Part shown: positions 1-21,761 of the stretch, piece by piece | Layout: each line of letters begins with the position of its first letter | Numbering within the stretch: the first letter of the stretch is position 1 | Source: an uncultured bacterium | GTDB taxonomy: Bacteria; Cyanobacteriota; Cyanobacteriia; Cyanobacteriales; Aerosakkonemataceae | DNA length: 23,392 bases | Assembly: GCA_964546365.1 (NCBI GenBank) | Contig: CAZJJR010000074.1 | Location: forward strand, 1 to 23,392 | Direction of reading: 5' to 3' | Translations under genes and position numbers: made by a program | Notes under the pieces: generated by a model | The model's input: only the letters and a program-made list of their open reading frames with translations | Told to the model about the DNA's origin: nothing | The model's database searches: none

Positions 1-922
1 TACACTCTTTCCCTACACAACGCTCTTCCGAATGTCCGTATAAAGTTCGCTGCAAAGAACCCGTTTTTACATCCCAAATTTTGATGGTTTTATCCGAACT
101 ACCACTAACAACAATATTATCTTGAGGACTGAAAGCAAGAGTATTAATAGATCCGGAATGTCCGGACAGAGTAAAGATAAGTTCTTCTGTATTGAGATTC
201 CAAAGTTTGGCGGTGTTGTCTGTACCACCACTGGCTATTATTGTTTTGTCTGCACTAATCTTAACTACTTTTACGCTTCCTTTCGCGTGCCAATCAAGAG
301 TATTTTCGGAATGCCAAGCAAAAGAACGTAGTTGTTCTCCCACTGGCAGATCTAAGATGGTAATTTCTCCTTCACTATTACCAGCCACAAGTAACCGACC
401 GTCGAGACTAATAGCGACGGAGGAAACCTCGCCTGGTTCCATTGAAAAGCTGCGAGGTAGTTCCCCGATGCGAAAATCCCAAATTTTGATATGGGAACCA
501 CTACTATTTGCAAAAGTCTGTCCATCTGGGCTAATCGCAACCGACGCAACCCCAGATGCACCAGAGATAGTACGAGTTAGTTCGCCTGTGGGGATATCCC
601 AAATTTTGAGGGTGTTGTCTTTACCAACGCTGCTGAGGAATTGCCCGTTTTGGCTAATTGCGATCGAACTAACTCCGCCTCGATGAGCGGAAAGAGTAGC
701 TAAACATTTCCAAGGCTGAGTTTGAGGCGTTGGTAGCGAAGCAACTGGCGCTGGCTGATTCGATCGTGTAATTTCATCTAGGCGTTTTTGAACAGCTTCT
801 TCTATTTGATTCGGAATATCTGCCAATTTGCGATCGATCTGAATCATCGCGTTTTCTAAGCTACTGACCCGACCGATCAGCTTGCCAATGAATTCCTTAA
901 AGTTTTCATTCTGCTGTGTCAT
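1..922 (-). CDS. WD40-repeat protein, partial. The N-terminus is in the window and the C-terminus runs off the window start. It has an N-terminal coiled-coil followed by WD40 blades.
   Basis: The minus-strand ATG is the reverse complement of 920-922. Translation gives MTQQNENFKEFIGKLIGRVSSLENAMIQIDRKLADIPNQIEE..., then WKCLATLSAHRGGVSSIAISQNGQFLSSVGKDNTLKIWDI..., with repeated GH...WD/IWD blade motifs. The open frame continues to position 1 with no stop. It is absent from the ORF track only because it is open-ended. Confidence 0.8.
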   Translation of the reverse strand, partial: MTQQNENFKEFIGKLIGRVSSLENAMIQIDRKLADIPNQIEEAVQKRLDEITRSNQPAPVASLPTPQTQPWKCLATLSAHRGGVSSIAISQNGQFLSSVGKDNTLKIWDIPTGELTRTISGASGVASVAISPDGQTFANSSGSHIKIWDFRIGELPRSFSMEPGEVSSVAISLDGRLLVAGNSEGEITILDLPVGEQLRSFAWHSENTLDWHAKGSVKVVKISADKTIIASGGTDNTAKLWNLNTEELIFTLSGHSGSINTLAFSPQDNIVVSGSSDKTIKIWDVKTGSLQRTLYGHSEERCVGKEC

Positions 923-945
923 GAAACAGATAGGTTTTGTAATAA

Positions 946-2598
946 TCAATTACGCTGCCAAATATCGATCGTACCATCTACTCTACCGCTTACTAACATT
1001 TTCCCGTTCGGACTAACGGCAACCGATATCACTGAAGCAGCAGAATTAGTATTAAGACTACAAATTTGTTTACCTGTTTGCCAATGCCAAATTTTCAGCG
1101 TACCGTCTGCACTGCTACTAATTAGCCTTTCTCGATCTGGACTGAATATCACAGATGTGACAGCGCCAAGATGACCTGTGAAAATGCCGCTCTTTTCTAA
1201 AGTTGTTAAATTCCATAATTTAATAGTTTTATCAGTGCTAGCACTCGCCAAGAGAAGTCCGTTAGGATGAAAAGCTACTGCACCGATCGCACCTAAATGA
1301 CCACCTAAAGTGTGTAGCAGTTGTCCGGTATTCCAATGCCAAAATTTGATATTGCCATCACCGCCACCACTAGCCAAAATTTTTCCATCGGGACTGAATG
1401 CGATCGCGCTAACTGCCCCTTGGTGTCCGGTTAAGGTATTTATTAATTTGCTCGTTTGTAAAGACGCTATTTTAATAGTTTGGTCGAAGCTGCCACTAGC
1501 AAGAGTTGTTCCATCTGGGCTAATAGCTACCGACCGAATCGAACCCGAATGTTCTTTAAAGTTTTCAATTAAGGCACCTGTTTGTAATTCCCATACTTTT
1601 ACACTTAAATCGGAACTGCCGCTGGCAAGTATTTCGGCATCTGAATTAAAGGCGATCGCGTAAACTACTCCAGCATTTTCCGATACTACCCGAATTAATT
1701 CCCCGGTTTGCAAATCCCAAAGTTTAATTTGACCATCAAAACTGGCACTGGCTATTTTTTGCCCATCAGAGCTAATTACTAATGATGATATCCAATCAGA
1801 ATGTCCGGCAAAACTTTTTAGGCAACGCCAACTTTCCGCCGGGAGGTTTTGTTGAGATGGCAGAGTGGGGGGATGGGGGGATGGGGAGATGGGGGTAATT
1901 TCCAATTCTTCTCCCGCACTCCCGCATTTCAACTCTTGTACGCTGCCACTTTCTAAATTAGGTAAACTAACGGTTTCTCTAATTTTTTCTCTGGAAGCTA
2001 TTTCAACTTTGATTAGTTGTACTTGTTGTTTTAGCTCATCTAGTTGTTTTTGTAGTTTTGCATCAAATTGGTAAGAAACATCTCCCGTTCCTTGTGATAT
2101 TTTGGCGATCGACTGCTCCAAATGGTCTACTCTGGCTGATAAGGCAGAATTGTTCAGGTATTGAATTACACTGCCGATCGAATCTTGTAAGGTAGCGCAT
2201 TGTTCCTTGAGTCGATCGATATCCCGATTAGCTGCATTTACGTTTACTTTGACCAACGAAGCTATATAGTCTTGCATTTCATCGGAAAGGTGACCCTGTT
2301 GCTGGCGATTCTGGTATTGAATGGAGGCTGGAATGGGGGGTAAAGAACGAACGGAGGCATACAGAGATTGTATTTCCGCAGATAGCTGCCGCTGAACTCG
2401 CACGATCGCAGCATTAGTACTTTGTTTCGTCAATACTTCAAAGCGACGCCGCGCGATCGAACTCACTAGTGCTAAAGCACACAAAGGTACAGCTACGTAA
2501 ATCACCTGTCCGCTAATCGTCGCTACCACTGCCCCAGCGACTGAGCCAGCCAAGCAAACATATTCTACGATCTGAAACTGACGCGAGTTGTTAAACAT
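946..2598 (-). CDS. WD40-repeat protein, 550 aa. It has two N-terminal TM helices, a ~180-aa coiled-coil, a Pro-rich linker and a 7-bladed WD40 propeller. It is a tandem paralog of the upstream partial gene.
   Basis: Track ORF. Hydrophobic N-terminus: VCLAGSVAGAVVATISGQVIYVAVPLCALALV. Heptad-rich segment: LQKQLDELKQQVQLIKVEIASREKIRE. Repeated WD40 units: SGSSDLSVKVWEL, SGSFDQTIKIASL, SASTDKTIKLWNL, SSSADGTLKIWHW, and others. A 23-bp gap separates it from the upstream co-directional WD40 gene. Confidence 0.85.
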   Translation of the reverse strand: MFNNSRQFQIVEYVCLAGSVAGAVVATISGQVIYVAVPLCALALVSSIARRRFEVLTKQSTNAAIVRVQRQLSAEIQSLYASVRSLPPIPASIQYQNRQQQGHLSDEMQDYIASLVKVNVNAANRDIDRLKEQCATLQDSIGSVIQYLNNSALSARVDHLEQSIAKISQGTGDVSYQFDAKLQKQLDELKQQVQLIKVEIASREKIRETVSLPNLESGSVQELKCGSAGEELEITPISPSPHPPTLPSQQNLPAESWRCLKSFAGHSDWISSLVISSDGQKIASASFDGQIKLWDLQTGELIRVVSENAGVVYAIAFNSDAEILASGSSDLSVKVWELQTGALIENFKEHSGSIRSVAISPDGTTLASGSFDQTIKIASLQTSKLINTLTGHQGAVSAIAFSPDGKILASGGGDGNIKFWHWNTGQLLHTLGGHLGAIGAVAFHPNGLLLASASTDKTIKLWNLTTLEKSGIFTGHLGAVTSVIFSPDRERLISSSADGTLKIWHWQTGKQICSLNTNSAASVISVAVSPNGKMLVSGRVDGTIDIWQRN

Positions 2599-6514: not shown

Positions 6515-6627
6515 ATGATTTTGAGTGATGACTCCACTCCTCGTGGAGAGATTCGTTGGGTAAAACTCGATCCAACACTAGGTGTTGAAACTAAAAAAAT
6601 TCGCGCTTGTTCCATTGGGGATCTATT
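6515..6627 (+). pseudogene. N-terminal fragment of a PemK/MazF-family toxin, 37 codons then frame loss.
   Basis: Translation: [40 protein letters not shown]. The RG(D/E)I.WV.LDPT.G.E..K.RP motif is the hallmark start of MazF/PemK toxins. The ORF ends after ~37 aa, whereas MazF proteins are ~110 aa. Confidence 0.4.
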
Positions 6628-6856
6628 TCTCTGTTGAAAAAAGCAGTCCAATCTGATACTCGCGAAGCTTGCTGCATATTGTGAATCACCATAATAATGG
6701 TGTAACTTTCCTTTAGTTGAAGGCAAAGTTATTCAATTTGCTGAGTTGAAATCGGATCGAGAGCCGAACAAGGTTCATCCATCAACAAAACATCAGGTTT
6801 CATCGCGATCGCTCGATGAGATAGGCGATGCGATCGCCTGCCATACCCCGATGATT
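6584..6856 (-). pseudogene. pstB: 3' remnant of pstB (phosphate ABC transporter ATPase). The signature-to-C-terminus region is retained, with an in-frame TAA. The 5' half, including the Walker A region, is absent.
   Basis: Minus-strand translation: ...[73 protein letters not shown]... It matches the conserved PstB segment [67 protein letters not shown]. One in-frame stop sits where a Glu would be. The sequence diverges after TAFF. Upstream it is cut by a stop at ~6857. Confidence 0.55.
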
Positions 6857-6875
6857 TAAATCGCGGCTACACAAA

Positions 6876-6899
6876 CATAACCCGCCTTCGCGGGTTATG
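6876..6899 (-). terminator. Stem-loop: CATAACCCGC, loop CTTC, GCGGGTTATG. It lies just downstream of the alaX-like gene stop.
   Basis: Perfect 10-bp inverted repeat with a 4-nt loop, 15 bp past the stop of the 6914-7588 minus-strand gene. The minus strand continues TTTGTGT. Confidence 0.4.
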
Positions 6900-6913
6900 G
6901 GAATATGGGATCG

Positions 6914-7588
6914 TTAAGTTGCAATAGATGAAATTGTGCTAGCGTCTTCAATGCAATAGCTGAGTCTTAATTTTCCACCCTTAACCTTAACGGCAGTGAT
7001 TTTGACTTGATCAAGAACTCCTAGATTTTCTAAATGAGTTCCACCACAAGAAACGGCGGGAAAAGCTCCAATCTGAATTGCTCGTGAGGTTATAGGATCT
7101 CCAATGATTGAGACAGGTAGATTCTCCTGAATAGCTTGTTTGAGTGCCTCACCCAATTTTTTTTGCACAAGGTCAGACTGCGGTATATTTTCTCCTACAA
7201 ACTCAACACGTGCTTCACCTGACCAGTGATGCGCTCCGACTGCTTTTAAACCAGCAAATAACTGCTCCATGAGGGCTGCAATCAGATGTCCGCCCGTGTG
7301 GAGTTTACTGTTGGTAATACGCCACACTTCATCTACAGTAATTGTTACCTGTTGACCCACTTGTAATGTATGGTTTTCGTTTAGGTAATGATTAATTTGT
7401 CCATCAACATGAGCAACATGAGTGACAAGATGATCGTTAATTGTTCCTCGATCTGCTTTCTGTCCGCCGCCTTGAGGGTGCATTAAGGTTTCGTCTAAGC
7501 GAACCCAAGGCTTACCGTCATTTCCAACCTCGGTAATTAAGGCAGTACCCGTTAAAGAAGAATCAAAGAGATAGCGTTTTACGGTCAT
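6914..7588 (-). CDS. alaX: AlaX-type alanyl-tRNA trans-editing protein (AlaRS editing-domain homolog; Ser/Gly-tRNA(Ala) hydrolase).
   Basis: It is 224 aa. Zn-binding HxxxH (HTGGHLIAALMEQ) and CxxxH (VSCGGTHLEN) motifs are characteristic of the AlaRS/ThrRS second additional (editing) domain. The size matches AlaX-M. Confidence 0.75.
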   Translation of the reverse strand: MTVKRYLFDSSLTGTALITEVGNDGKPWVRLDETLMHPQGGGQKADRGTINDHLVTHVAHVDGQINHYLNENHTLQVGQQVTITVDEVWRITNSKLHTGGHLIAALMEQLFAGLKAVGAHHWSGEARVEFVGENIPQSDLVQKKLGEALKQAIQENLPVSIIGDPITSRAIQIGAFPAVSCGGTHLENLGVLDQVKITAVKVKGGKLRLSYCIEDASTISSIAT

Positions 7589-7621
7589 AATAAACTCCTG
7601 AAAGTAGGGGAAAAAAGTAGT

Positions 7622-7669
7622 TGATATATCCGGCAGACTTTAAATTTTCTCAATCTGCCGGATTGATAT
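7622..7669 (-). terminator. Hairpin: ATCCGGCAGA, a 16-nt loop, TCTGCCGGAT. It is flanked by the direct repeat TGATAT. The minus strand continues ATATCAACTACTTTTTTCC. Candidate intrinsic terminator for the 7676-8521 gene.
   Basis: Perfect 10-bp inverted repeat at 7628-7637 and 7654-7663. TGATAT occurs at 7622-7627 and 7664-7669. A T6 run lies ~10 nt 3' of the stem on the minus strand. Confidence 0.45.
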
Positions 7670-7675
7670 CAGGTT

Positions 7676-8521
7676 CTAGCTCCACATTGAAATAGGCATA
7701 TCTAATCCGCGAAACCCTATAAAGCAACTGTGAGTAACGCGCACTCCCAAAGATGGGCGCACTGCATGGATACAGGTAGAATCAAACAGAATTAAATCTC
7801 CTAATTGAGGCTGAATAGTGCAAGTCGGTAATGGAAGTTTTTGGCGTTCTAGTCCATAACATCCTGGAACGCGCAGTCGATCGTATTCTTCCTCCGAAAA
7901 GTGTTGCCACCAAAGATCTAGTTCCCCTCCAGATTCCGGGATATGAGTGTAGACGTTTACTGCAATCTGTCGGATTAGTTCCTTGGAACGTTCAAATTCT
8001 GGTGCATCAACTTGTAGCTTGTCGCGATGAGGTAGCGCCTCCGCTCCGTTGCGAAATACTCTGGCAGAACCTGCCCACATTGAATGTCCGCCAAGATGCT
8101 CAAACTGTACCCCAGCCAGCCAAACCTGATGCAACTCCATAAGCAAGAGACTGATGGGGGATAAGCGATACTTAAATCGCTCAATTTCCTGGTACATCCA
8201 ATCCATTGATTGTTGGAAATATTGCTGCCGTAGCTCAGGTTTTCCTACTGTGTCACAGAATGGGATACCCGTGCGTAAGATGTTTGGCTCAATGCCATAG
8301 CCACTCAAAGTTTCGTGGCTTAGAACTGATTGAGTAAACTCTTCTGCCAAACAAGAGGGATAGAAGTTCGGTACTCTCACCGCTAGAGTTTTTCCACAAA
8401 GTAAAGCTTCGAGATGCTGTCGTTGAAGTCTTTCTGTGACCGACAAAGAAGGTAGATGATTGTTGTTAACGTTCCAAGCATCGACAGTCAGTGGTTCCGG
8501 TAACATAGAGATTAACCTCAT
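7676..8521 (-). CDS. 2OG-Fe(II) oxygenase superfamily protein (putative hydroxylase).
   Basis: It is 281 aa. An HxD facial-triad motif (ALPHRDKLQ) and a distal His (DSTCIHAV) are followed by RVTHS, the R..S 2-oxoglutarate C5-carboxylate binding motif. The spacing is typical of the double-stranded beta-helix fold. The subfamily cannot be assigned by eye. Confidence 0.5.
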   Translation of the reverse strand: MRLISMLPEPLTVDAWNVNNNHLPSLSVTERLQRQHLEALLCGKTLAVRVPNFYPSCLAEEFTQSVLSHETLSGYGIEPNILRTGIPFCDTVGKPELRQQYFQQSMDWMYQEIERFKYRLSPISLLLMELHQVWLAGVQFEHLGGHSMWAGSARVFRNGAEALPHRDKLQVDAPEFERSKELIRQIAVNVYTHIPESGGELDLWWQHFSEEEYDRLRVPGCYGLERQKLPLPTCTIQPQLGDLILFDSTCIHAVRPSLGVRVTHSCFIGFRGLDMPISMWS

Positions 8522-8729
8522 TGATAGTTTTGTTTTGGGGTTACTGCCTCTGCTGCTCTTGGTCGGGTAGGCAGAGGTTTTTACAGCGGCTTGTGTTGTT
8601 TAAATTTGAGCTGATTGCTCGTAACCCTTGTATCCTGCTCATTAATCAATCTAATTCGTCTTCTCTTGGCTGAGAACGTTGAAAATCTTCTATGATGTTG
8701 AATAACTATTGAATTTCAACGGTTGAATT

Positions 8730-11084
8730 GTGGCGTACAGACCTGAAGGTGCAAAGCTATTCGGAGCTGCAATCAAGTATTTACTAGATAAAAAAGGGCT
8801 GAGTCAGCGGAAGTTTGCAGAGCAAGCAGGCTTGGAGACTGGCTACGTTAGCAAGCTGGTTAATGGTGAGATTTCAGAACCAAGGCAGGAAAATCGCAGT
8901 AAAATTGCACAAGGCTTGGGGGTAACAGAGCAGCAGCTACAAGAGTTAGTCGTTCAGTACATTGAAGGGAAGAGAGAGACTGACGGGGGTAGTCCTAATT
9001 CTGGTGAGATCGCTTCCACTACCATCACCCCTAATACCCCATCCACCAACTCGAATTTTGTAGGCAGGGAAAAGGCGATCGCAGATCTCAACAACCTGAT
9101 TCAACAAGGTGCAAAAGCCATTGTCATCCAAGCAGCAGGCGGTGTTGGTAAAACTACCTTGGCATGGGAATATCTCAAAACTCAAGGGTTTGACTTGGTT
9201 CTCGACCTCCCAATGGCAAAGGTGAAAGAGAACATTTCTGCTGTTGAGGGTGTGATTGAAGGATCTGCTGTCGAGGATGTAATTGAAGGATGGCTGAAGT
9301 ATGACTTTCAAGAGGAATCAGGGCGAGAGTTTAGGGAAATGCTGAGGCGACTAAAGCGGCAACTCCAAACTCGTAAAGTTGGGGTATTGATTGATAACTT
9401 AGAACCAGCGCTGGATAAACAATGCAGGTTTATTGAACCCCATCGTTGCTATTATGTGGAACTGTTGCGAGTTTTGGCTGATCCAACGGTACAGTCTGTC
9501 ACGCTGATTACCAGCCGCGATCGCCTCTGTGACGATGATGTAAATGTAGAGCATTATCCGTTATCCGGATTAGATGAGCAAGCATGGCAACAATTTTTTA
9601 GCAGTCGCAATATCAATATACATACTCCCACTCTTAAGGCGATGCACAACGCTTATGGAGGCAATGCCAAAGCAATGGATATTTTCTGCGGTGCAATCCG
9701 ACAAGAGTTTGATGGAGATATGGCGGCTTATTGGCGGGAAAATAGCGCGGATCTGTTGGTGAAACCAGATTTAAAAAATTTAGTGACCAATCAGTTCAAT
9801 CGTCTGCAAGAAATTGATTTTCAAGCCTATCAACTCCTCTGTCGTTTGGGATGCTATCGCTATCAGGATGTGCCGACTGTTTCTACTCAAGGACTGTTGT
9901 GTTTGCTGTGGGATGTCGAAGAAGCGCGGCCTAGAAGAATTATTGAATCGTTGCGAAATCGCTCTTTAGTAGAGTTTAAAAAGGGAGAATACTGGCTGCA
10001 TCCAATGATTCGGGAAGAAGCGATCGGACGGTTGAGAGCAAGTGATGATTGGGAGAATACGAACCGCAAATCCGCCGAGTTTTGGGCAGCAAGTATCGAA
10101 ATAATTGAAACTGTAAAAGATGCTCTGACAGCTTTAGAGGCTTATTATCACTATGTAGAGATTGATGATTTTGAGTTTGCTGGTAGTGTTATTGTTAAAG
10201 ATAGAAGTAACAAATGGGAAAAAGATGAATGTCTTGGTATAGCATCTTATAGACTGGGTTTATTACAAAAAATGATTTTCGCAATAAATCGAATAGTAAA
10301 CAAGCTTAATTCTAGCTACAACCTGGGAAGACTTTATAATATTTTGGGAGATCTTTACTGGCTAACAGGCTCTTTTACGAAGAGTATTGAATCTCACCAA
10401 AAATCAGAAGAGTTCGCAGTTATCTTCAAACAAAAAAGTCTTGAAGTCGTTGCTTCTTTTAATATAGGTCTTTGCAAAATAGATTTATTAGAAGTTAACC
10501 AAGCGGTAGAGTTGTTTGAAAAAGTTATCTCACTTGCTGAAAATACAGAATGCCATAGATATGCGATACAGTCCTGGTATTGCCTAGCATTTTTAAAGTC
10601 ATGCTTAGGTTTGAGGCAGGAAGCACTTTACTTTGCAAATAAGAGTTACAATGAACTCCCAACAGTAAAGTGGAGTGCATGGGCTAAAGGATATAGTTTC
10701 TTGTTTTTAGGTCAGACCTACAATAATTTAAGAGAAGCTGAAAAGTCTATTGAAATGTACAATAAAGCTATTCAATTTGCTGAAGAAAGTCACTACACTC
10801 AGGTAAGAGCAAAAGCTCTTACTGGCATAGCAGAGCTATGCCGAAAACAGGGGGATTTAGAAACCGCAATACCAAATCATTTAAAATCAATAGAACTTCT
10901 AGATAAAATCGGCGCTAAATGCGACCTTGCAGAAGCTTACTACCAACTAGGATTAACTTATCAAAAGATAGGTGATACTGAAAAAAGTCAGGATAATTTT
11001 GATAAAGCAATTCAACTATTCAGTGAAATGGAAGCACCCAAGCAAGTTAAGAAAGTGCGACGGGCGATGGAAAATGGGGGATAA
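8730..11084 (+). CDS. STAND-class signalling NTPase: N-terminal XRE-type HTH, NB-ARC (AP-ATPase) domain, C-terminal TPR repeats. GTG start.
   Basis: It is 784 aa. HTH: LSQRKFAEQAGLETGYVSKLVNGE. Low-complexity S/T/N/P linker. Walker A: VIQAAGGVGKTTLAWEY. Walker B: KVGVLIDNLE. RNBS-B-like: VTLITSRDR. C-terminal TPR-like helical repeats, e.g. LAEAYYQLGLTYQKIGDTEKSQDNFDKAIQLFSE. An in-frame TGA lies upstream of the GTG, so the start is at GTG 8730 or at a downstream ATG. Confidence 0.85.
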   Translation: MAYRPEGAKLFGAAIKYLLDKKGLSQRKFAEQAGLETGYVSKLVNGEISEPRQENRSKIAQGLGVTEQQLQELVVQYIEGKRETDGGSPNSGEIASTTITPNTPSTNSNFVGREKAIADLNNLIQQGAKAIVIQAAGGVGKTTLAWEYLKTQGFDLVLDLPMAKVKENISAVEGVIEGSAVEDVIEGWLKYDFQEESGREFREMLRRLKRQLQTRKVGVLIDNLEPALDKQCRFIEPHRCYYVELLRVLADPTVQSVTLITSRDRLCDDDVNVEHYPLSGLDEQAWQQFFSSRNINIHTPTLKAMHNAYGGNAKAMDIFCGAIRQEFDGDMAAYWRENSADLLVKPDLKNLVTNQFNRLQEIDFQAYQLLCRLGCYRYQDVPTVSTQGLLCLLWDVEEARPRRIIESLRNRSLVEFKKGEYWLHPMIREEAIGRLRASDDWENTNRKSAEFWAASIEIIETVKDALTALEAYYHYVEIDDFEFAGSVIVKDRSNKWEKDECLGIASYRLGLLQKMIFAINRIVNKLNSSYNLGRLYNILGDLYWLTGSFTKSIESHQKSEEFAVIFKQKSLEVVASFNIGLCKIDLLEVNQAVELFEKVISLAENTECHRYAIQSWYCLAFLKSCLGLRQEALYFANKSYNELPTVKWSAWAKGYSFLFLGQTYNNLREAEKSIEMYNKAIQFAEESHYTQVRAKALTGIAELCRKQGDLETAIPNHLKSIELLDKIGAKCDLAEAYYQLGLTYQKIGDTEKSQDNFDKAIQLFSEMEAPKQVKKVRRAMENGG

Positions 11085-11532
11085 TAAAGATAGAGTTTGC
11101 TTGTAAATCTGGTTGCTTTTTCTGGAGAGTCAGTGGATATCGGTTATTACTAAACAGCAGCAAAAATTATTTAGTTTAGGCGAAGTAGTTAGTACTCAGA
11201 TTATGCTACCAGGTTTTAGCGTGGTAGTTGATGAGTTGTTGGTTTAAGCTATTACTAATATTCAAATTATTAAAAACTATCATTGCCTAGAGAGATTGTA
11301 CTGTCTTTTAAAGTGTGAATGCCTAGAGTACGCCAACACAACTTAATTCTAGGGTTTGTGTAACAAAATTAAAACGAAATTGTAGATTCATTACAAATTA
11401 GAAGTTGCTGGGAAATCGCGGTTAGGATCGAGCAACATTTTTAGGAATATGGTGAATTTAAAAAAGTGAAGCGCGAACAAAAAACTTTCTTAATCACCTA
11501 CCTAAAAAACTGTGGTAATCAAATATTAGAAG

Positions 11533-14214
11533 ATGGATATGAATACAACCGATCGCAAATTGGAAAATCAAACTGAAATCTCCGGAAGTTCTAGTGGAGT
11601 AATTCGTCTCAAACCTCAACAATTCATTCACGTTTTAGATAACAATACTGGCGTTACTAGACTGGAAGTTGGCCCTCAAACGATTACTTTACGCGATCAC
11701 GAACGGTTAATATTGAAACCGGAACCGATGATTGTCGTACCGCCTCGATACTATTGCATCATTGAAAATCCCGTGCTTCGCGATGAAGATGGTAATCCGA
11801 TTGTTGACGAACACGGACAAATCAAACTTCGTTACGGCGATGCAGAAATTCGCTTTGCACAAGAACCTTTTCCCCTTTATCCCGGTGAAGAACTGGCAGG
11901 GGAAATCACGCAACTGCAAGTTGTGGAAAGAAATCAAGCACTACGTCTGAGAGCAATTCGCGATTTTGCCGATGCAATTACAGTTACGGTAGATGGAGAA
12001 AGCGAAACTCAAACTATCAACCGTTTAGCTGGAGATGAATGGTTATTTGAAGGGCCAGGAACTTATATTCCTCGCATTCAAGTGGAAGTTTTAGAGATAA
12101 TTCCTGCCAGAGTAATTAAACCAAATCAAGCTTTAAGATTAGTGGCAAGGCAGAATTGCATCGACCGTCAAGGTAATAGAAGAAGATCGGGTGAAGAATG
12201 GTTGGTGAGGGAAGAAGGTGCTTATTTACCAGGAGTTGATGAAGAGGTTGTTGGCATAATTAATGCTTACGTTTTAACTGAAAAGAAAGCATTGCATCTA
12301 AGAGCAAAACGCACTTTTAACGATGTTTTCGGTCGGCAACGTAAAGCAGGTGATGAATGGTTAGTTACCTTTGAAGATGCAGAAATCCACATTCCCGATG
12401 TTTATGAAGAGGTGGTGGGAGAAGTAAAAATTACCACTTTGGGCGACCGAGAATGGTGCATTGTTCTCAACCCAATTGATGAAGATGGTAAACCGCAATT
12501 GGGAATGCAAGAGGTGAGACAGGGGAGAATTTCGTTTTTTTTGCATCCAGGTGAATCGCTGGAAAACGGCATTCAAAAAGTTTATGTTTTGGGAGAACAG
12601 GAAGCACTTTTGCTGAAAGCTAAAGAAGCTTTTAGTGAGGGTGAAGGTGATAATTTAATCGAACGACAACCAGGGGATATGTGGATGATTGCAGGGCCAA
12701 GAGATTATATCCCGCCTGTAGAAGTAGAAGTAATCGAGAAACGTCAAGCAATTCCTCTTGATAAGAATGAAGGAATTTATATTAGGGATATTCAGACGGG
12801 CGAACTGAAGGTTGTCAGTGGGCCTCAAGCTTATATGCTCAGTCCTTATGAAGAACTTTGGGAAAAAGAACTGCCGCCAGTTGTGGAAGAACTTTTAGCG
12901 CTAAAAAATGACCCGGTTTCCGAACGGGGTCGGCATCATTTTACCAAAGGAGAGCGCCAAAATCAAACATTAGAAATTTCCGCAAATTATCAGGCAACAA
13001 GCGAACGAGATAAGACTAGAGCAGTAGTTTTTCACGTTCCGCAAAATGCCGCCGTGCAAATACATGATTATAAGGAAAGAACGGCGCGAACTGTATTTGG
13101 GCCAGACTTAGTAATGCTGGGGCCAGATGAAGCTTTTACGGTGTTGAGTTTATCCGGTAGCGTACCGAAAAGACCTCATGTAATCAAGTCTTTAGCTTTA
13201 TTATTAGGGCCAGATTTCATGACCGATTTGTTTACTGTCGAAACATCAGATCATGCCCGACTTCAGTTGCGTTTGTCTTATAATTGGTATTTTGATGTTA
13301 GTAGACATGACGAACAAGCGGCGGCAAAACTTTTTCAAGTACCTGATTTTGTAGATACTGCTTGTAAGGCGATCGCATCTCGCGTGCGGGGTGCGGTAGC
13401 CAGCGTAAAATTTGACGAATTTCACCGCAATTCGGCGCGGATTATTCGCACTGCTGTCTTCGGTACGGATGCTGAAGGTCGCGTGGGTGAAGAATTCCGT
13501 TTTAGAACCAATAATTTGGTGATTTTCAATGTTGATATTCAATCAGTAGAACCAGTAGATGAGGAAACTTTAAAAAGTTTGCAAAAGTCAGTACAAATTG
13601 CCATTCAAATTACTACCGATGCTCAAGAAGCTGCTGCCAGACATGATGCTGAACGAATCGAACAAGAAGCAAAATCACGATTAGAAAGGCAGGCAATCGT
13701 CGATAAAGGTGCGGCAGAAGGAGAACGGAGAAATTTGCTGGAGTTGCAAGCAGAAAACTCTGCGATCGAAACTACGGGTAAAGCCACCGCAGAAGCCAGA
13801 GCAAAAGCAGAAGCCGCCAGAATTGAAGGGCAATTAGCTGTTAATTTAGCTCAACAAGAAGCTGAAGCGGCGAGAATTCGTTACGAAGCTGAATTGGCTC
13901 AATTAAGATCTAAACAGGAAGCTGAATTAGCTCATCAACAAGCACTAATTGCTTTGGAAATTGAAAAAGCACAGCGCATGGCGGAAATTACCAGTACAGA
14001 ATTCAGGCAAAAAGTGGAAGCGATCGGCCCAGAAACCTTGCAAGCAATGGCGCAAGCTGGCCCGGAAATGCAGGCGAGACTTTTGCAATCTCTTGGTCTA
14101 CAAAGCGTATTAATTACTGATGGTAGAAGTCCGATCAATCTATTTAGTACTGCTCAGGGTTTGATAAGTCCAATTGCTGCTGACAGTGCTCAGTTACCAA
14201 AAGGCGATCGCTAA
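11533..14214 (+). CDS. mvp: Major vault protein (MVP) homolog, full length. It has MVP repeat domains, an SPFH-like shoulder, a cap-helix coiled coil and a cap-ring.
   Basis: It is 893 aa and collinear with human MVP from memory. [17 protein letters not shown] corresponds to [33 protein letters not shown] is identical. NQALRLRA and [12 protein letters not shown] correspond to [10 protein letters not shown] and [28 protein letters not shown] corresponds to [56 protein letters not shown] corresponds to [63 protein letters not shown] and PINLF are conserved. HIP1 GCGATCGC lies inside the gene at ~13369 and ~14203. There are no introns. Confidence 0.9.
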   Translation: [893 protein letters not shown]

Positions 14215-14245
14215 CTAATATAGGTTCCATTTATAAGCTAATTAT

Positions 14246-14285
14246 AAATAGTTGTAGAAATGATTTCCGGTTTCTACAACTATTT
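14246..14285 (+). terminator. Rho-independent terminator candidate downstream of mvp: AAATAGTTGTAGAAA, a 10-nt loop, TTTCTACAACTATTT, then a T-rich tail.
   Basis: Perfect 15-bp inverted repeat, 32 bp after the mvp stop. It is followed by AATTTATTGCTTTAT. Confidence 0.6.
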
Positions 14286-14338
14286 AATTTATTGCTTTAT
14301 AAGCAAACTGAGACGTTATAATAATCGTACCTAAATAG

Positions 14339-14668
14339 ATGAAAAAAGCAATGACTCATACCAAACCAAATCGCCCCCGTCGTCGAGGCAGGTTATTTCC
14401 TGAATACACGATTCCACCAGAAGAGTTAGCTAGACGCCAAGCTGAGAAAGAAGCGCGTTCTCAACGTTATCGCGAAGTTTTTGGACAAATTAGCCCTGAA
14501 TTAATAGAAAACCATTACAATTGGTTTATTGCGATCGAGCCAAAAAGCGGTGATTATTTTATCGATCCTGATGAGGAAGTAGCTGTTCAAAAAGCACGGC
14601 AAAAGTACCCTCATGGTATGATTGGCATCATGCGTTTAAATGAGACAGGAGCCTGTGGAATGATATGA
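14339..14668 (+). CDS. Hypothetical 109-aa protein with a strongly basic N-terminus. It is translationally coupled to the downstream aspartic protease.
   Basis: Track ORF: MKKAMTHTKPNRPRRRGRLFPEYTIPPEELARRQAEKEARSQRYREVF... The stop TGA overlaps the next start (ATGA at 14665-14668). Confidence 0.5.
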   Translation: MKKAMTHTKPNRPRRRGRLFPEYTIPPEELARRQAEKEARSQRYREVFGQISPELIENHYNWFIAIEPKSGDYFIDPDEEVAVQKARQKYPHGMIGIMRLNETGACGMI

Positions 14669-15033
14669 TTTCAGGCAGCTTCGGTGAAATTGGAGAGTTA
14701 TTTTTTGAAATAGATTTAATTGCTGCCGATGGAGAAAGATTCGCGATCGAAGTGCTACTAGATACGGGGTTTACAACAGGTTGGTTAGCACTTGACACTC
14801 AAGATGCTCAAAGTTTAGGGTGGTCTAAAATTGAAAGTGAACGAGAGATGCAAACAGCAAGAAGTAAAGAGTTTTTTGATATTTATGAAGGAAGAGTTGT
14901 CATTGATGAACAGGAGTATATTATTCCGGTTTTAGCTGGTGCGGGAATTCCGGAATCTTTATTAGGTTTGCAATGGTTGAAAATGATGCCGCTCATGGTA
15001 AATTATGCAGCAGGCGTGTTGACTTTGGGGTGA
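14665..15033 (+). CDS. Retropepsin-like (clan AA) aspartic protease, single domain, 122 aa.
   Basis: Catalytic triad LLDTGFT (D-T-G). The length and hydrophobic pattern are typical of homodimeric retroviral-type pepsins, including a C-terminal IIPVLAGAGIPESLLGLQWL flap/dimer region. Confidence 0.6.
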   Translation: MISGSFGEIGELFFEIDLIAADGERFAIEVLLDTGFTTGWLALDTQDAQSLGWSKIESEREMQTARSKEFFDIYEGRVVIDEQEYIIPVLAGAGIPESLLGLQWLKMMPLMVNYAAGVLTLG

Positions 15034-15166
15034 ATTGGGAAATGCGGTATGCCTACGGCACGCTACGCAATCGCACAAGACAATAGATTGCACATCCACG
15101 TGTTAATATGAAATTTGAGATATTGTAATTATTATAAAATAGCTACGTACTTATTACTAAATACTT

Positions 15167-15772
15167 ATGCCGCAATCTAAACCATATCAACCGCTACTTC
15201 TAAGACTGCTGCACGGAATCAATGTTTTACTCGTTATCGGTGCAGTTATCACGGGATTCTTAGTTTATGATAGCTGGGATGGTCGTTTTGGTAAGCTAGG
15301 AATCACTCTACAAAACCGAGATTTAATTGATATTCACGGCACTTTTGGGTTTTTCTTTTTTCCTATAATGATACTATTGACTATTTATAGTATCCGCGTA
15401 GGTTACAAACGCTTAGTACAAGCAGATTCGTTGAATAATTTAACAAAAATAGGAAAACCAATTTGGTGGTATAGCTTACAACGTTTCACTAATACGCTGA
15501 TGTTAATTGCAGCGCTAGTTGCATTAGTTTCCGGTAAGTTTCAAAACGAAAACTGGCTGCCTCAAGGTGAAATGAATCATGTTTGGTATTACATTCACTT
15601 GATAGGTTGGTGTTTGGTTGTGGCGGCTATAGCTATTCACGTTTTAATGAGTGCGAAAGTGGGTGGTGTACCGCTGATTCTTTCTATGTTCGATCGCAAA
15701 ATTCGTCCTGAAGACGATCCTAAATTATGGCCGGAAAAAGTGAAAGCTTGGTTGCAACATCCTCATTTCTAA
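15167..15772 (+). CDS. Cytochrome b561 / Ni-hydrogenase b-type cytochrome-like 4-TM membrane protein.
   Basis: It is 201 aa with four predicted TM helices. Conserved His lie in TM1 (LLHGINVLL), TM2 (DIHGTFGFFFF) and TM4 (HVWYYIHLIGW..IAIHVL), in the pattern of dihaem cytochrome b PF01292-type proteins. Confidence 0.45.
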   Translation: MPQSKPYQPLLLRLLHGINVLLVIGAVITGFLVYDSWDGRFGKLGITLQNRDLIDIHGTFGFFFFPIMILLTIYSIRVGYKRLVQADSLNNLTKIGKPIWWYSLQRFTNTLMLIAALVALVSGKFQNENWLPQGEMNHVWYYIHLIGWCLVVAAIAIHVLMSAKVGGVPLILSMFDRKIRPEDDPKLWPEKVKAWLQHPHF

Positions 15773-16085
15773 AAGGATTACCGCATTTTGACTACCCATC
15801 TTTATCGTATAATTTGAGATTGTGTAGGGGCGGGTTTAGAAGATAATCTTTGATTTCAACAAACAATTTCGTAACAAAACCCGCCTATATGATGCAATAC
15901 TAGCTTTTTCAGCTTTATGGTAAAAAATGTTCTTTATCCTACATATGAAGAAAATGGTGGGTTACAGCACGGTTCGTTAATTATTGGTTGAAAGCCATAA
16001 ATTTATTACCCGCGCCTAACCCACCCTACTATTAAATCAATTTTCACGATCACCAAATTTACGGGAGAGGGACACCGATGTAATT

Positions 16086-19102: not shown

Positions 19103-19194
19103 TAGGTGAAGGAGATCGTCTTTACCATAGGTTTTGGCAGTTCGGCGTTTTATATATATAATCATAAGAAAAACTAGATCGCTTAATTACTAAT

Positions 19195-20274
19195 ATGTTT
19201 TCTCACATAATGTTAGTTATTGATGACAATAAAGATACTATATGGTTATATCAGCAACTAATGACCTTACTACCAGCTAAACATTTAAAAATGTCTTTGT
19301 CACGTAATGGAAAAGAAGGATTAGCTTTTCTTAAATCTCAAAAACCTAGCATAATATTGTTGCGTTATCCTGTTGGCTACTATTGGGATATTATTCGATA
19401 TATTCAGTCTCAAGCTCGGTTAAGATGGGTTCCGTTGATAATTTTGTCAGGAAAACCAAATATTAACGATGAGCATTCCATGATTTATGGGCGTTTTGAA
19501 CATTACCAGTTACCAGGTAATGCACTAGAACTTAAAAAGACTATTAAACGTGCGATCGCTCAAACAAAACAGCGATATTTGCAAGATAGCAAACATTCAA
19601 TATTTGCTCAATATTCTCAGACTGATATAAAACCTAAATATTTAAAATTGCAGGAATTGCTAACTAATAAAAATTGGCTTGAAGCAGACTTAGAGACAAC
19701 TAGACTAACGTTTCAGGTTGATAAAGAAAAGCTAGTAATTGATTCCGGTACTCCAGCCAGAAAAGCAGTTGCAGAAGCAATTGATGCTTTTTTACTTGAG
19801 GACTTACAAATGATAGATTACCTTTGGGTGATTTATAGCAATGGTCATTTTGGATTTAGCGTTCAGTGGCAGATACTTCAAAAAATCAAAAGTGAACTTT
19901 TTACCGTGCTTAAGAAAATAGGATGGTTTGATGATGAAAGCTTCCAAAATATCGATGTTGATGAAAGTTATGTAGAAGGATTTATGATTGATGGTAATTC
20001 ATCCTTCACAACAGATATTCAGACTAAAGATTTTTTTGACCAATATCCGATTCAAGGTAAATGGACTCCGATGACTGTCTTACCAATTGCTCTAGGGTGG
20101 TTAAGTAAAGGTGCGCCTGAATGGAATTTTGATTGTGAAACTAAGTACTCTCTCGATACTCCCAAGGGTCATTTACCTACAGTTGGCAAACAAGAAATGG
20201 GGGGAGCGTTTCATCACGGCTATCTGCTTTCTTGGATTTTCTCCAAACTTTATCCACGCCAATCAGAATGGTAG
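19195..20274 (+). CDS. Pseudo-receiver (CheY-like, lacking the phospho-acceptor Asp) fused to a GUN4-like domain.
   Basis: It is 359 aa. The N-terminus reads IMLVIDDN...SIILLRYPV...PLIILSGKPN. The DD pair, the beta4 Ser and the K-P are present, but the D57 position is Arg. The central and C-terminal region reads KYLKLQELLTNKNWLEADLETTRLTF...IDYLWVIYSNGHFGFSVQWQILQKI, matching the GUN4 W..YS.G.FGFS.Q..I signature. Confidence 0.55.
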   Translation: MFSHIMLVIDDNKDTIWLYQQLMTLLPAKHLKMSLSRNGKEGLAFLKSQKPSIILLRYPVGYYWDIIRYIQSQARLRWVPLIILSGKPNINDEHSMIYGRFEHYQLPGNALELKKTIKRAIAQTKQRYLQDSKHSIFAQYSQTDIKPKYLKLQELLTNKNWLEADLETTRLTFQVDKEKLVIDSGTPARKAVAEAIDAFLLEDLQMIDYLWVIYSNGHFGFSVQWQILQKIKSELFTVLKKIGWFDDESFQNIDVDESYVEGFMIDGNSSFTTDIQTKDFFDQYPIQGKWTPMTVLPIALGWLSKGAPEWNFDCETKYSLDTPKGHLPTVGKQEMGGAFHHGYLLSWIFSKLYPRQSEW

Positions 20275-20279
20275 ACTAT

Positions 20280-20651
20280 TTAGTAGCTGCCTCTCAAACT
20301 AGCGCCATCAATTCTAATGTAAGGTCTGAGTTCTACTTGTACCTTTGTTTTAACTTCTTGATTTTTGGCTGCTACTTCAAAAGCAAACTTACCTTTTTCT
20401 GAATCGATAATTTCAATATCTTCAACCATTTCAAACGTGAAATTGGCAATAGAAACATCTGAAAGTTTTAGATTAATTTGAACTGATTCTTGAATCATAT
20501 CCATGCCAAAGCGTAGTTTGATACCTGAAGCGTCAGTTACTTCATAACACCAATATCCATCAGTGGGATTAGCAATTACTAGTTCGGCATAAAATAATTC
20601 TAGCATTGCTAGTTCATCAAACTTTTGGCGGAGTTTCATTTTTTTATCCAA
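20280..20651 (-). CDS. Hypothetical 123-aa protein, last gene of a three-gene minus-strand cluster.
   Basis: Track ORF. It lies 8 bp downstream of the 79-aa ORF. No recognisable motifs. Confidence 0.4.
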   Translation of the reverse strand: MDKKMKLRQKFDELAMLELFYAELVIANPTDGYWCYEVTDASGIKLRFGMDMIQESVQINLKLSDVSIANFTFEMVEDIEIIDSEKGKFAFEVAAKNQEVKTKVQVELRPYIRIDGASLRGSY

Positions 20652-20659
20652 ACCTTAAT

Positions 20660-20899
20660 TCACGATGCCCAACAAGTTTTTTCGGGAAAATTTCCCTGTT
20701 TCCAATGCTGGCGAATTTTGACTGCCGCTCTCGGAAATAAAGCCTCTGAGTTATTAGTGGGAACTGGTTCAATCTCTTTAACTACACCATTAGTTTTATC
20801 TAACCACAGTTTGCCAAATAGCTTTTCGTGGGGGCCAAAACAGTAGACGACGCTGGTATCGTCTTCTTTTTCTTTCCAAAGCAACACATAAAAAGCCAT
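20660..20899 (-). CDS. Hypothetical 79-aa protein.
   Basis: Track ORF: MAFYVLLWKEKEDDTSVVYCFGPHEKLFGKLWLDKTNGVVKEIEPV... It is tightly spaced with its neighbours. Confidence 0.4.
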   Translation of the reverse strand: MAFYVLLWKEKEDDTSVVYCFGPHEKLFGKLWLDKTNGVVKEIEPVPTNNSEALFPRAAVKIRQHWKQGNFPEKTCWAS

Positions 20900-20961
20900 G
20901 CCTATTTTCCTCTTTTCTGATAGCGGATTTCTGACAGACTGCTACTAGCCTATCAGTTCCA

Positions 20962-21336
20962 CTATGCCAGAGGTGGTGACGGTGGGTTCCAGATGCGACC
21001 TGAACGTATTGTCGCTTCATGTGCAGTACGGTAGTCGGTACGAAAGATGCCCTCAAACCGCGATTCAAAGTATTCATGCTCTAATAGAGCTAGATCCTCA
21101 CCGATGTACTCGCCTCGGCGCAATCGTTCCCAAGCATCAGCAATATCTGGGTCAGGGTCAAAGCGACTAACTCTATCATCAAGCTGGTGTTCGCGGTAGA
21201 ACAGATGGTTTTTGATCCGTCTGATGCGGTATTCTCGTAAACCACTATTGCGGGCAATTTCTGCTACATCATCAGCTTGGCGGATAGCTTCGTAGGCTTG
21301 AGGGGCGTATTCTTCCCAACGGGTAAAATCGTCCAT
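20962..21336 (-). CDS. Hypothetical 124-aa protein, first gene of the small-gene cluster.
   Basis: Track ORF: MDDFTRWEEYAPQAYEAIRQADDVAEIARNSGLREYRIRRIKNHLFYREHQLDD... No family recognised. Confidence 0.4.
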   Translation of the reverse strand: MDDFTRWEEYAPQAYEAIRQADDVAEIARNSGLREYRIRRIKNHLFYREHQLDDRVSRFDPDPDIADAWERLRRGEYIGEDLALLEHEYFESRFEGIFRTDYRTAHEATIRSGRIWNPPSPPLA

Positions 21337-21694
21337 ATTGGAGATTTCCTTTAATAACGTTCTTATAGCTTCATATTTATGAAAGGCTAACTTTAAGCTA
21401 TCTGCTCGTTTTTACCAATATGAGAAATGTGCGAAATGTTTTATCTGTGAGATTTGCATGAATTTTCCAAGGCAATCATATTCATGGCTTAGGTAAGAGA
21501 GTCACGCTTAAATCAACCCCACGCAGAGGAAGGGAAGAGAGGAGAACGATCGCATTTTGGCTATTTTGATAGTTGGCGACGTATTGCTTAGTCGCAGAAA
21601 CATTGAATAATTCTTATTGATTAGTTTAAATGTTGCACAACGTTGAAGCCGCTCTAATCGAAAATACAGAACTTTCCAGGTAAATGAGGTATAC

Positions 21695-21728
21695 AGAAAC
21701 CCGGTTTCTTGAAGAAACCGGGTTTCTA
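21695..21728. repeat. Copy 2 of the 34-bp palindromic element, identical to 19069-19102.
   Basis: The sequence AGAAACCCGGTTTCTTGAAGAAACCGGGTTTCTA was read at both loci. The flanks differ. Confidence 0.65.
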
Positions 21729-21761
21729 TCTCTGCTGTAACATCATTCTAAATTCTGACCC

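Follow-up and report, generated by a model that had tools for sequence, protein, structure and literature searches.

Does a cyanobacterium carry the complete shell protein of the vault, a particle whose function has to our knowledge stayed unknown for about 40 years, as a resident gene of its own chromosome, and would it build vaults from it? This question is raised by a gene for the major vault protein (MVP) on contig CAZJJR010000074.1 of NCBI GenBank assembly GCA_964546365.1, which derives from an uncultured cyanobacterium assigned to the Aerosakkonemataceae; the whole stretch of 23,392 nucleotides is the window analyzed here. Vaults are still mostly treated as an exclusively eukaryotic structure (e.g. 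PMC9778704), and an original prediction, made from the DNA letters of the window, had regarded the gene as an exceptional find. We show that its open reading frame (ORF; Table 1) encodes an MVP ortholog with every structural module, the homology extending from end to end rather than consisting of a local coiled-coil or SPFH likeness. We further hold with high confidence that it is a functional, chromosomally resident member of a tight bacterial clade. At the same time it is an ordinary member of a known, published and widely annotated bacterial MVP family, and not a discovery.

Identity and modular architecture of the encoded protein

The uninterrupted ORF specifies 893 amino acids; a second ATG at position 11539, two codons in, yields the 891-residue form that NCBI calls on the same 23,392-bp contig and is the start common to most homologs. 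The product, of approximately 100 kDa and pI 5.1 with an Ala/Glu/Gln-rich cap helix, was matched in Pfam by Vault (four times), Vault_2 (twice), Vault_3, Vault_4 and MVP_shoulder, all far above the curated gathering cut-offs, and these vault families were its sole Pfam matches at E<=0.01; PF11978 (MVP_shoulder) was covered over its whole 118-position profile (E=1.9e-52). Phmmer searches of the PDB sequences aligned residues 20-877 with human MVP 6-850 in a single continuous stretch (E=1e-302) and residues 19-883 with rabbit MVP 5-855 (E=0, ~1020 bits), and the rat and mouse proteins were likewise matched in one continuous alignment. Counted on the alignment, 483 of 834 aligned positions are identical to human MVP (57.9%). 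By region, with boundaries that we take to be those of the rat vault crystal structure, identity to the human protein is 48% in R1, 56% in R2, 58% in R3-R9, 69% in the shoulder, 51% in the cap helix and 67% in the cap ring, and runs of 32 and 12 residues are exactly the same in both proteins. These searches bear out the original prediction that the ORF is collinear with human MVP over its whole length, exceeds 50% identity to it and shares long identical blocks with it; the profile comparison that it had suggested placed all MVP domains above cut-off in one end-to-end homology.

A first AlphaFold model from 27 close homologs was discarded (pLDDT, the predicted local distance difference test, 46.9). 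The model used here was computed from a diverse 50-sequence alignment that included eukaryotic representatives; it has a mean pLDDT of 81.8 and displays beta-rich repeats, an alpha/beta shoulder and a single long helix spanning residues 675-829. Its best Foldseek matches in the PDB are all MVP (E ~1e-87, 817-865 columns). An inspection of the individual modules showed that: 1) the repeats are modeled as beta-rich at a pLDDT of ~90, and match the mouse R1-R7 crystal structures in Foldseek. 2) R3 contains a clade-specific insertion of 12-16 residues (residues 145-161), of which Thiotrichales have a shorter version and eukaryotes hardly any trace. 3) A disordered loop at residues 458-484 is variable, and eukaryotic sequences vary in length at the same place. 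4) The shoulder together with residues of R9 forms a pocket that is equivalent, by alignment, to the NAD+/ADP-ribose site of human MVP. 5) The cap ring bears the motif GPEMQ..LL..LGL....LITDG..PINLF, which is common to eukaryotes. 6) At the N-terminus, where pLDDT is below 50 for residues 1-18, the protein exceeds human MVP by 14-16 residues measured from the conserved Arg9, rather than by the ~19 residues first estimated. This extension is semi-conserved and of the same length in the cyanobacterial sequences of the alignment, differs in length and sequence in Thiotrichales and Chloroflexi, and is represented by merely 3-8 residues in the eukaryotic representatives.

The eukaryotic proteins (human, rat and rabbit; PDB 11dr, 4hl8/4v60, 9z4w, 9bw5) have the same twelve-module architecture in the same order, and share with the window protein a similar size and charge, the waist residues R9, N22, D39 and R42, most of the shoulder pocket and the cap-ring motif; the window differs in its intron-free bacterial gene, the additional N-terminal residues and the R3 insertion. 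Among bacterial proteins, the cyanobacterial MVPs of Moorena producens/Lyngbya majuscula 3L (F4Y3B4), Microcoleus (Allocoleopsis) PCC 7113 (K9WB38) and Oscillatoria acuminata (K9TKX8) belong to the same family. The window protein is ~80-82% identical to those of Moorena 3L and PCC 7113 and agrees with them in its domains, N-terminal extension and R3 insertion; just the host lineage and gene neighborhood differ, along with a promoter module proper to the sub-clade of the window. The band-7 MVP-like proteins of Myxococcales, Cytophagales/Saprospira and gut phages have repeat, SPFH-like and coiled-coil modules in common with it, but these proteins are merely ~16% identical to cyanobacterial MVPs (PMC3762200), and the window protein belongs to the eukaryote-like clade and not to this group. 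SPFH cages (HflK/C, flotillin, prohibitin, stomatin) are homo-oligomeric domes with a shoulder-like fold that, unlike MVP, are membrane-anchored and lack the nine vault repeats, while encapsulins likewise assemble into shells but have an HK97 fold unrelated to MVP; the likeness to either is one of function and of a single domain, not of family membership.

Current annotation is divided, in that JGI names the proteins of this family "major vault protein" and the NCBI annotation pipeline "colicin uptake protein". The latter name would imply a TolA-like envelope protein, and the Ala/Glu/Gln-rich cap helix does resemble TolA domain II, a likeness discussed earlier (bioRxiv 10.1101/872010). Against this, no NCBIfam model matches the protein and no TolA family is among its Pfam matches; it has neither a transmembrane segment nor a signal peptide-like N-terminus; and its homology to MVP reaches well beyond the coiled coil. 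A role in colicin uptake is hardly credible on these grounds. The PADLOC defense models, too, gave no match to the protein.

Table 1. Positions of the MVP gene, its encoded modules and associated sequence elements in the window; residues are numbered on the 891-residue form.
Feature	Positions	Strand	Remarks
MVP coding sequence	11533..14214	+	893 amino acids, stop codon included; uninterrupted ORF
Palindrome TGTAGATTCATTACA (TTGTA-N7-TACAA)	11381..11395	+	~150 nt upstream of the MVP start codon; putative operator/activator site
Conserved box CGGTTAGGATCGAGC	11419..11433	+	-10-like hexamer (TAGGAT/TAGAAT); probable MVP promoter core
Bacterial-clade N-terminal extension	11539..11595	+	residues 1-19; hydrophilic, predicted disordered
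Vault repeats R1-R9	11596..13209	+	residues 20-557; Pfam Vault/Vault_2/Vault_3/Vault_4; aligned to human 6-519
SPFH-like shoulder	13210..13557	+	residues 558-673; PF11978
HIP1 octamer	13369..13376	+	Ala-Ile-Ala codons of ACKAIASRV, the most conserved block, identical to human
Cap-helix domain	13558..14025	+	residues 674-829; ~155-residue helix; aligned to human 647-802
Cap-ring region and variable C-terminal tail	14026..14211	+	residues 830-891; aligned to human 803-850
HIP1 octamer	14204..14211	+	last codons Gly-Asp-Arg
Terminator-like hairpin, 17-bp stem	14245..14286	+	30 nt after the MVP stop codon

Residence in the chromosome and place in the bacterial family

An identity of 58% to a human protein is unusual for a bacterium, and the window consists of just one 23-kb contig, drawn from an assembly of metagenome type, both of which would suit a eukaryotic contaminant or a chimeric assembly product. 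We give practically no weight to this possibility in view of an ortholog, 96% identical, on an independent 162-kb contig (NCBI GCA_036703985.1, "Leptolyngbyaceae cyanobacterium"), whose flanks are syntenic with those of the window (WD40, aspS, MVP, a pair of small ORFs, cytochrome b561, a 415-residue protein, a dacB-type peptidase, PRC-barrel and SMC). In blastn comparisons, window positions 11091-15779 align to this contig as one unbroken 4.7-kb block of 90.6% nucleotide identity that spans both MVP junctions, including the intervals at 11.1-11.5 kb and 14.2-14.3 kb at which a chimeric join had been considered. The window contains 13 copies of the cyanobacterial HIP1 octamer (GCGATCGC), where 0.2 would be expected, and two of them lie inside the MVP gene. 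The relative synonymous codon usage of this gene correlates with that of the rest of the window at r=0.85, the joint highest value of 14 genes, and its GC content at third codon positions is 0.31, in keeping with its neighbors. More than 60 other bacterial contigs, several of them megabase-sized, also carry orthologs. In each of these respects, namely the HIP1 octamers in the gene, the intron-free single ORF, the neighbor-like codon usage and composition, and residence in place of contamination, the original prediction holds. A mobile-element origin is not supported either: we found no plasmid match for MVP, and the sole match in the phage collection, in a 735-kb uncultured phage, is just 23% identical over 62% of the protein.

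The ratio of non-synonymous to synonymous substitution rates (dN/dS) is 0.05-0.09 against six orthologs, as compared to 0.063 for aspS in the same genome pair, which shows that the MVP gene is under strong purifying selection. This bears on a further alternative, in which the gene would be a recent acquisition from a eukaryote private to this lineage, or a decaying relic. A few orthologs indeed look disrupted: that of Floridaenema evergladense (L057, 10007-11409; labels with L denote our genomic loci) lacks residues 72-372 through an internal deletion, that of a Hormoscilla (L052, 10001-12645) has a frameshift near residue 350-380, and that of Moorena bouillonii (L054, 10001-12934) has an insertion of ~300 extra bases in the variable-loop region. 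These altered copies could reflect real decay or assembly errors. The window copy, in contrast, is intact; synonymous sites are saturated between genera while dN/dS is still below 0.1; and the cyanobacterial sequences from several orders form one clade with 100% bootstrap support, all of which makes a recent or relic status very improbable.

The family itself is widespread. A large protein search recovered 2,670 proteins at E<=1e-10, the best 120 of which are all 75-100% identical to the window MVP and nearly all from filamentous cyanobacteria; more than 100 database protein clusters are 75-96% identical, the closest entry being at 96% (a Leptolyngbyaceae metagenome-assembled genome, MAG). A scan of one genome per species yielded 66 genomic MVP loci, mostly in filamentous cyanobacteria (Oscillatoriales, Coleofasciculaceae, Nostocales including Calothrix, Nostoc and Aulosira, Tumidithrix, Spirulina, Xenococcaceae and Prochloron), together with giant sulfur bacteria of the Thiotrichales (Thiomargarita and Parabeggiatoa, 68-70% identity) and Chloroflexi (Chloroflexaceae and Oscillochloris at 67-68%, and an Anaerolineales fragment at 77% over residues 570-881). 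HIP1 octamers are entirely missing from the non-cyanobacterial MVP contigs, and therefore the Thiotrichales and Chloroflexi contigs are not mis-binned cyanobacterial DNA. One further contig (L048, JBLNEP010000122.1), labeled Actinomycetota bacterium MAG69, encodes an MVP that is 86% identical and has the same promoter module as the window; its 14 HIP1 octamers leave little doubt that it is cyanobacterial DNA wrongly binned with an actinobacterial MAG. The view that MVP is essentially absent from bacteria therefore had to be abandoned, also on account of the literature: Daly et al. described three cyanobacterial MVPs in 2013 and proposed a eukaryote-to-cyanobacterium transfer (PMC3762200), Sokolskyi described bacterial MVPs in 2019, connected them to filamentous bacteria that glide and suggested the reverse route (bioRxiv 10.1101/872010), and a 2023 preprint added MVP-like proteins of phages (bioRxiv 10.1101/2023.11.10.566534).

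To place these sequences we combined 23 bacterial MVPs with 43 full-length representatives from a library clustered at 50% identity in a neighbor-joining tree, the named representatives being all eukaryotic (Anaeramoeba, a sponge, a ciliate, a diplonemid, Trypanosoma and an orthonectid). The bacterial MVPs form one clade with 100% bootstrap support, within which the cyanobacteria and the Thiotrichales are each monophyletic, also at 100%. Members of the bacterial clade are at least 70% identical to one another, whereas identity to the window protein is 29-53% for the eukaryotic representatives. These results support the view that the bacterial clade arose once and that MVP passed between bacterial phyla long ago; the sharing of genes by filamentous gliding bacteria, cyanobacteria and giant sulfur oxidizers included, is well documented (PMC6390638). 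Among eukaryotes the clade attaches to Anaeramoeba with 35% support, which permits no conclusion on the direction of transfer between eukaryotes and bacteria. Thus, the bacterial part of the phylogeny that had been suggested as a check is solid, and the idea of an anciently resident gene stands within the lineage, whereas the tree settles neither the direction nor the date of the transfer. In the search of the 50%-identity library no representative exceeded 53% identity to the query, though cyanobacterial relatives reach 75-96% and the human protein 58%. Bacterial and some eukaryotic MVPs may share one representative in this clustering, which, if true, would illustrate how little MVP has diverged across domains.

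Functional sites and the proposed assembly of a particle

Residues of known sites (PMC2752026; PMC12280208) were mapped, in human numbering, onto the alignment with 24 bacterial sequences. At the waist, where the two halves of the vault meet, R9, N22, D39 and R42 are kept without exception in the bacterial sequences that have a residue at those columns. In the human cage the NAD+/ADP-ribose pocket is formed between the shoulders of two adjacent monomers (PMC12280208); 11 of its 13 residues are identical in the window protein (R437, K506, R507, P508, H509, L517, D521, F522, W545, P565 and K573), and K506, D521, F522, W545, P565 and K573 are invariant in 24/24 bacterial sequences. In contrast to vertebrate vaults, the contacts for PARP4 (MINT) are not kept, with Q164 and D214 replaced by P and G, respectively. 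Recombinant MVP on its own builds vaults in eukaryotic hosts (PMC9778704). No vault RNA, TEP1 or PARP4, the further constituents of the vault ribonucleoprotein, was detected within the window, which has no TROVE or PARP domain; Rfam gave no match at gathering score in the window, for vault RNA or any other RNA, and none at E<=1 upstream of MVP.

From these conserved features we propose that a vault-like particle probably, if by no means certainly, forms in this bacterium. Monomers of ~100 kDa would associate laterally via the cap helix and the shoulder into dome-shaped half shells, and these would pair via their R1 domains to give a hollow, MVP-only particle in the cytoplasm; at its waist, the lumen would be lined by the additional N-terminal residues. 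The original prediction had likewise placed the extension there; we agree that it is a bacterial one, and its location at the waist would follow if a vault forms. As the shoulder pocket is largely preserved, the particle may bind adenine nucleotides, and since the PARP4 docking residues are not kept, any cargo would be recruited differently from that of vertebrate vaults. The fuller proposition, that large filamentous bacteria of three phyla build MVP-only vaults with an adenine-nucleotide pocket and a bacterial-specific lumenal N-terminal tail, seems to us evenly poised. That a prokaryotic vault-like particle is plausible was part of the original prediction and stands, but the idea is neither new nor specific to this window (PMC3762200; bioRxiv 10.1101/872010).

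Several points weigh against the assembly of true vaults from this protein. 1) The waist also differs from the human one, by F6 to G, I36 to T, R37 to L and N40 to H, of which T, L and H at positions 36, 37 and 40 are the commonest residues in the eukaryotic representatives too. 2) Two pocket arginines are changed, R504 to V and R511 to I, and the 11/13 identity is not significantly above the 69% background of the shoulder (binomial estimate, p ~0.18), so that the pocket is preserved while specific selection for it is not demonstrated. 3) The global TM-scores of the Foldseek matches are only 0.39-0.47 for what is a monomer model lacking the curvature of the assembled vault; these low values arise because the free, elongated monomer differs in curvature. 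4) Human MVP produced in E. coli forms pseudo-spherical particles of 70-80 nm in place of barrels, and the assembly of eukaryotic vaults is thought to be templated on polyribosomes (PMC9778704). 5) Our literature searches found no bacterial vault particle or experimental characterization, and every MVP match from the PDB, by sequence or by Foldseek, is mammalian, in agreement with the original prediction that no bacterial vault has been characterized structurally or functionally.

The mis-shaped particles from E. coli and the supposed need for polyribosomes also favor a different outcome, in which the protein is a true MVP ortholog that makes half-vault domes, membrane-attached SPFH-like caps or some other oligomer, and not closed two-halved barrels. 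The SPFH-like shoulder points the same way, as Foldseek also retrieves prohibitin, flotillin, HflK/C and stomatin, all of membrane-attached cages, at E ~1e-5 to 1e-6; moreover, one study reports that a subpopulation of Dictyostelium vaults is membrane-associated in situ (PMC13100048). However, the bacterial MVP has no hydrophobic segment (maximum Kyte-Doolittle score over 19 residues, 1.15), and purifying selection is as strong on R1 as on the remainder of the protein. This constraint, combined with the invariance of the four waist residues, would be difficult to account for if the half-to-half interface were not used. We accordingly rate such a different assembly as unlikely, while according it real weight, and favor the closed particle.

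Promoter, gene neighborhood and significance

The MVP gene looks monocistronic. It is preceded by a 448-bp spacer, which contains a palindrome and a -10-like box (Table 1). The palindrome is conserved upstream of MVP in 9 loci of the sub-clade of the window though the upstream genes differ, and its offset to the box is fixed at 38 nt in the window, L067, L002, L042, L057, L001 and L048; the pair thus recurs at the same spacing in seven sub-clade loci, and partly in three more, and is absent from the other ~48 MVP loci. We read it as an MVP promoter plus a regulator site limited to this clade, a putative assignment based on the conservation of position and sequence. The palindrome does not qualify as an NtcA site, its spacer being 7 rather than 8 nt and its distance to the -10 box too great. 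A generic promoter scan did not flag the box, and the generic promoter and terminator scan as a whole performed no better than on shuffled sequence, except for the 17-bp hairpin after the stop codon. The fold of the 5' leader is unremarkable (z = -1.4). An antisense ORF at 13246..13542 was rejected as a gene; its apparent conservation in 37 loci simply follows from its overlap with the MVP coding sequence, which is itself conserved. There are no tRNAs in the window.

We searched for partners of MVP by BLAST of the window neighbors against the 66 loci, by all-against-all clustering and by a Pfam census of 110 immediate neighbors. No neighbor family is conserved across the 66 loci beyond clade-level synteny, and the most frequent families are response regulators (6/110) and pentapeptide proteins (5/110). 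STAND NTPases were rejected as a partner, being too few (NB-ARC in 3/110, plus the NACHT protein that adjoins MVP in the Thiomargarita locus L061). A family found downstream of MVP in 7 loci resembles class V aminotransferases upon inspection of its sequence. In Tumidithrix helvetica PCC 7403 a 699-residue Band_7/SPFH protein lies immediately downstream of MVP (L024, 12711-14810, minus strand), which places two scaffold proteins of SPFH type next to each other, and in two other loci a type 2A encapsulin shell protein (SrpI-like) is immediately beside it. Two adjacent WD40-repeat proteins are encoded at window positions 1-2598 (minus strand), that at 946-2598 with a long N-terminal coiled-coil or membrane-like region; we rejected them as TEP1 candidates, as the TEP1 propeller models were among dozens of generic WD40 cross-hits. 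Of the neighbors named originally, aspS, dacB (a dacB-type Peptidase_S13) and smc (a C-terminal fragment at the contig end) were confirmed; a remnant of pstB was not found.

Right after MVP (window 14339-15033, plus strand) two small genes that overlap by 4 nt encode a 109-residue protein of unknown family and a 122-residue protein with a DTGF motif, the latter resembling clan AA aspartic proteases (TIGR03698, E=8e-10, below the cut-off). The pair recurs at L067 (12820-13502) and L045 (3996-5504); beside the MVP gene of the distant Spirulina MAG it is present twice in tandem, on the strand opposite to MVP. We consider it a probable mobile module, similar to toxin-antitoxin systems, and not a partner of the vault. 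Directly upstream of MVP (8730-11084, plus strand) lies a gene for a 784-residue protein with a helix-turn-helix (HTH; Cro/C1-type), a P-loop NTPase (AAA_16) and TPR repeats, reminiscent of STAND-type regulators or defense proteins; in the closest relative, L067, the same position is occupied by a different HTH/NB-ARC protein and a Uma2 nuclease. The start of the spacer (11091-11250) aligns to the 3' end of this nuclease gene (L067, 9552-9712) and is probably a gene remnant from cassette replacement. Relative to the 162-kb contig the sole non-collinear stretches of the window are two cassettes, one at 6539-11090 with an AlaX-like protein, a 2-oxoglutarate-Fe(II) oxygenase and the STAND protein, and one at 19115-21744 with a GUN4-domain protein and small ORFs. 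In the 162-kb relative the first is replaced by toxin-antitoxin genes (HicA, DUF433/DUF5615). The two cassettes are variable islands that flank a stable MVP block.

The significance of the gene is a property of the whole described family, to which the window adds one more clean and well-supported example. At the family level our analysis adds the distribution over three phyla, the finding of no conserved partner, the conserved promoter module, and a pocket that is kept next to a PARP4 site that is not conserved. The mostly large, filamentous and mat-forming hosts in three phyla, partly noted in 2019, are the only ecological clue. A bacterial MVP that is this close to the human protein, evolves under strong constraint and comes without the accessory proteins of vertebrates is well suited as a minimal system in which to ask what the shell itself does, whether the shoulder pocket is ancestral and how assembly proceeds without eukaryotic polyribosomes. 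If bacteria do build vaults, this would be the first prokaryotic vault and a genetically tractable system for addressing the purpose of the particle, and it would provide a fixed point for deciding in which direction the vault was transferred between eukaryotes and bacteria.

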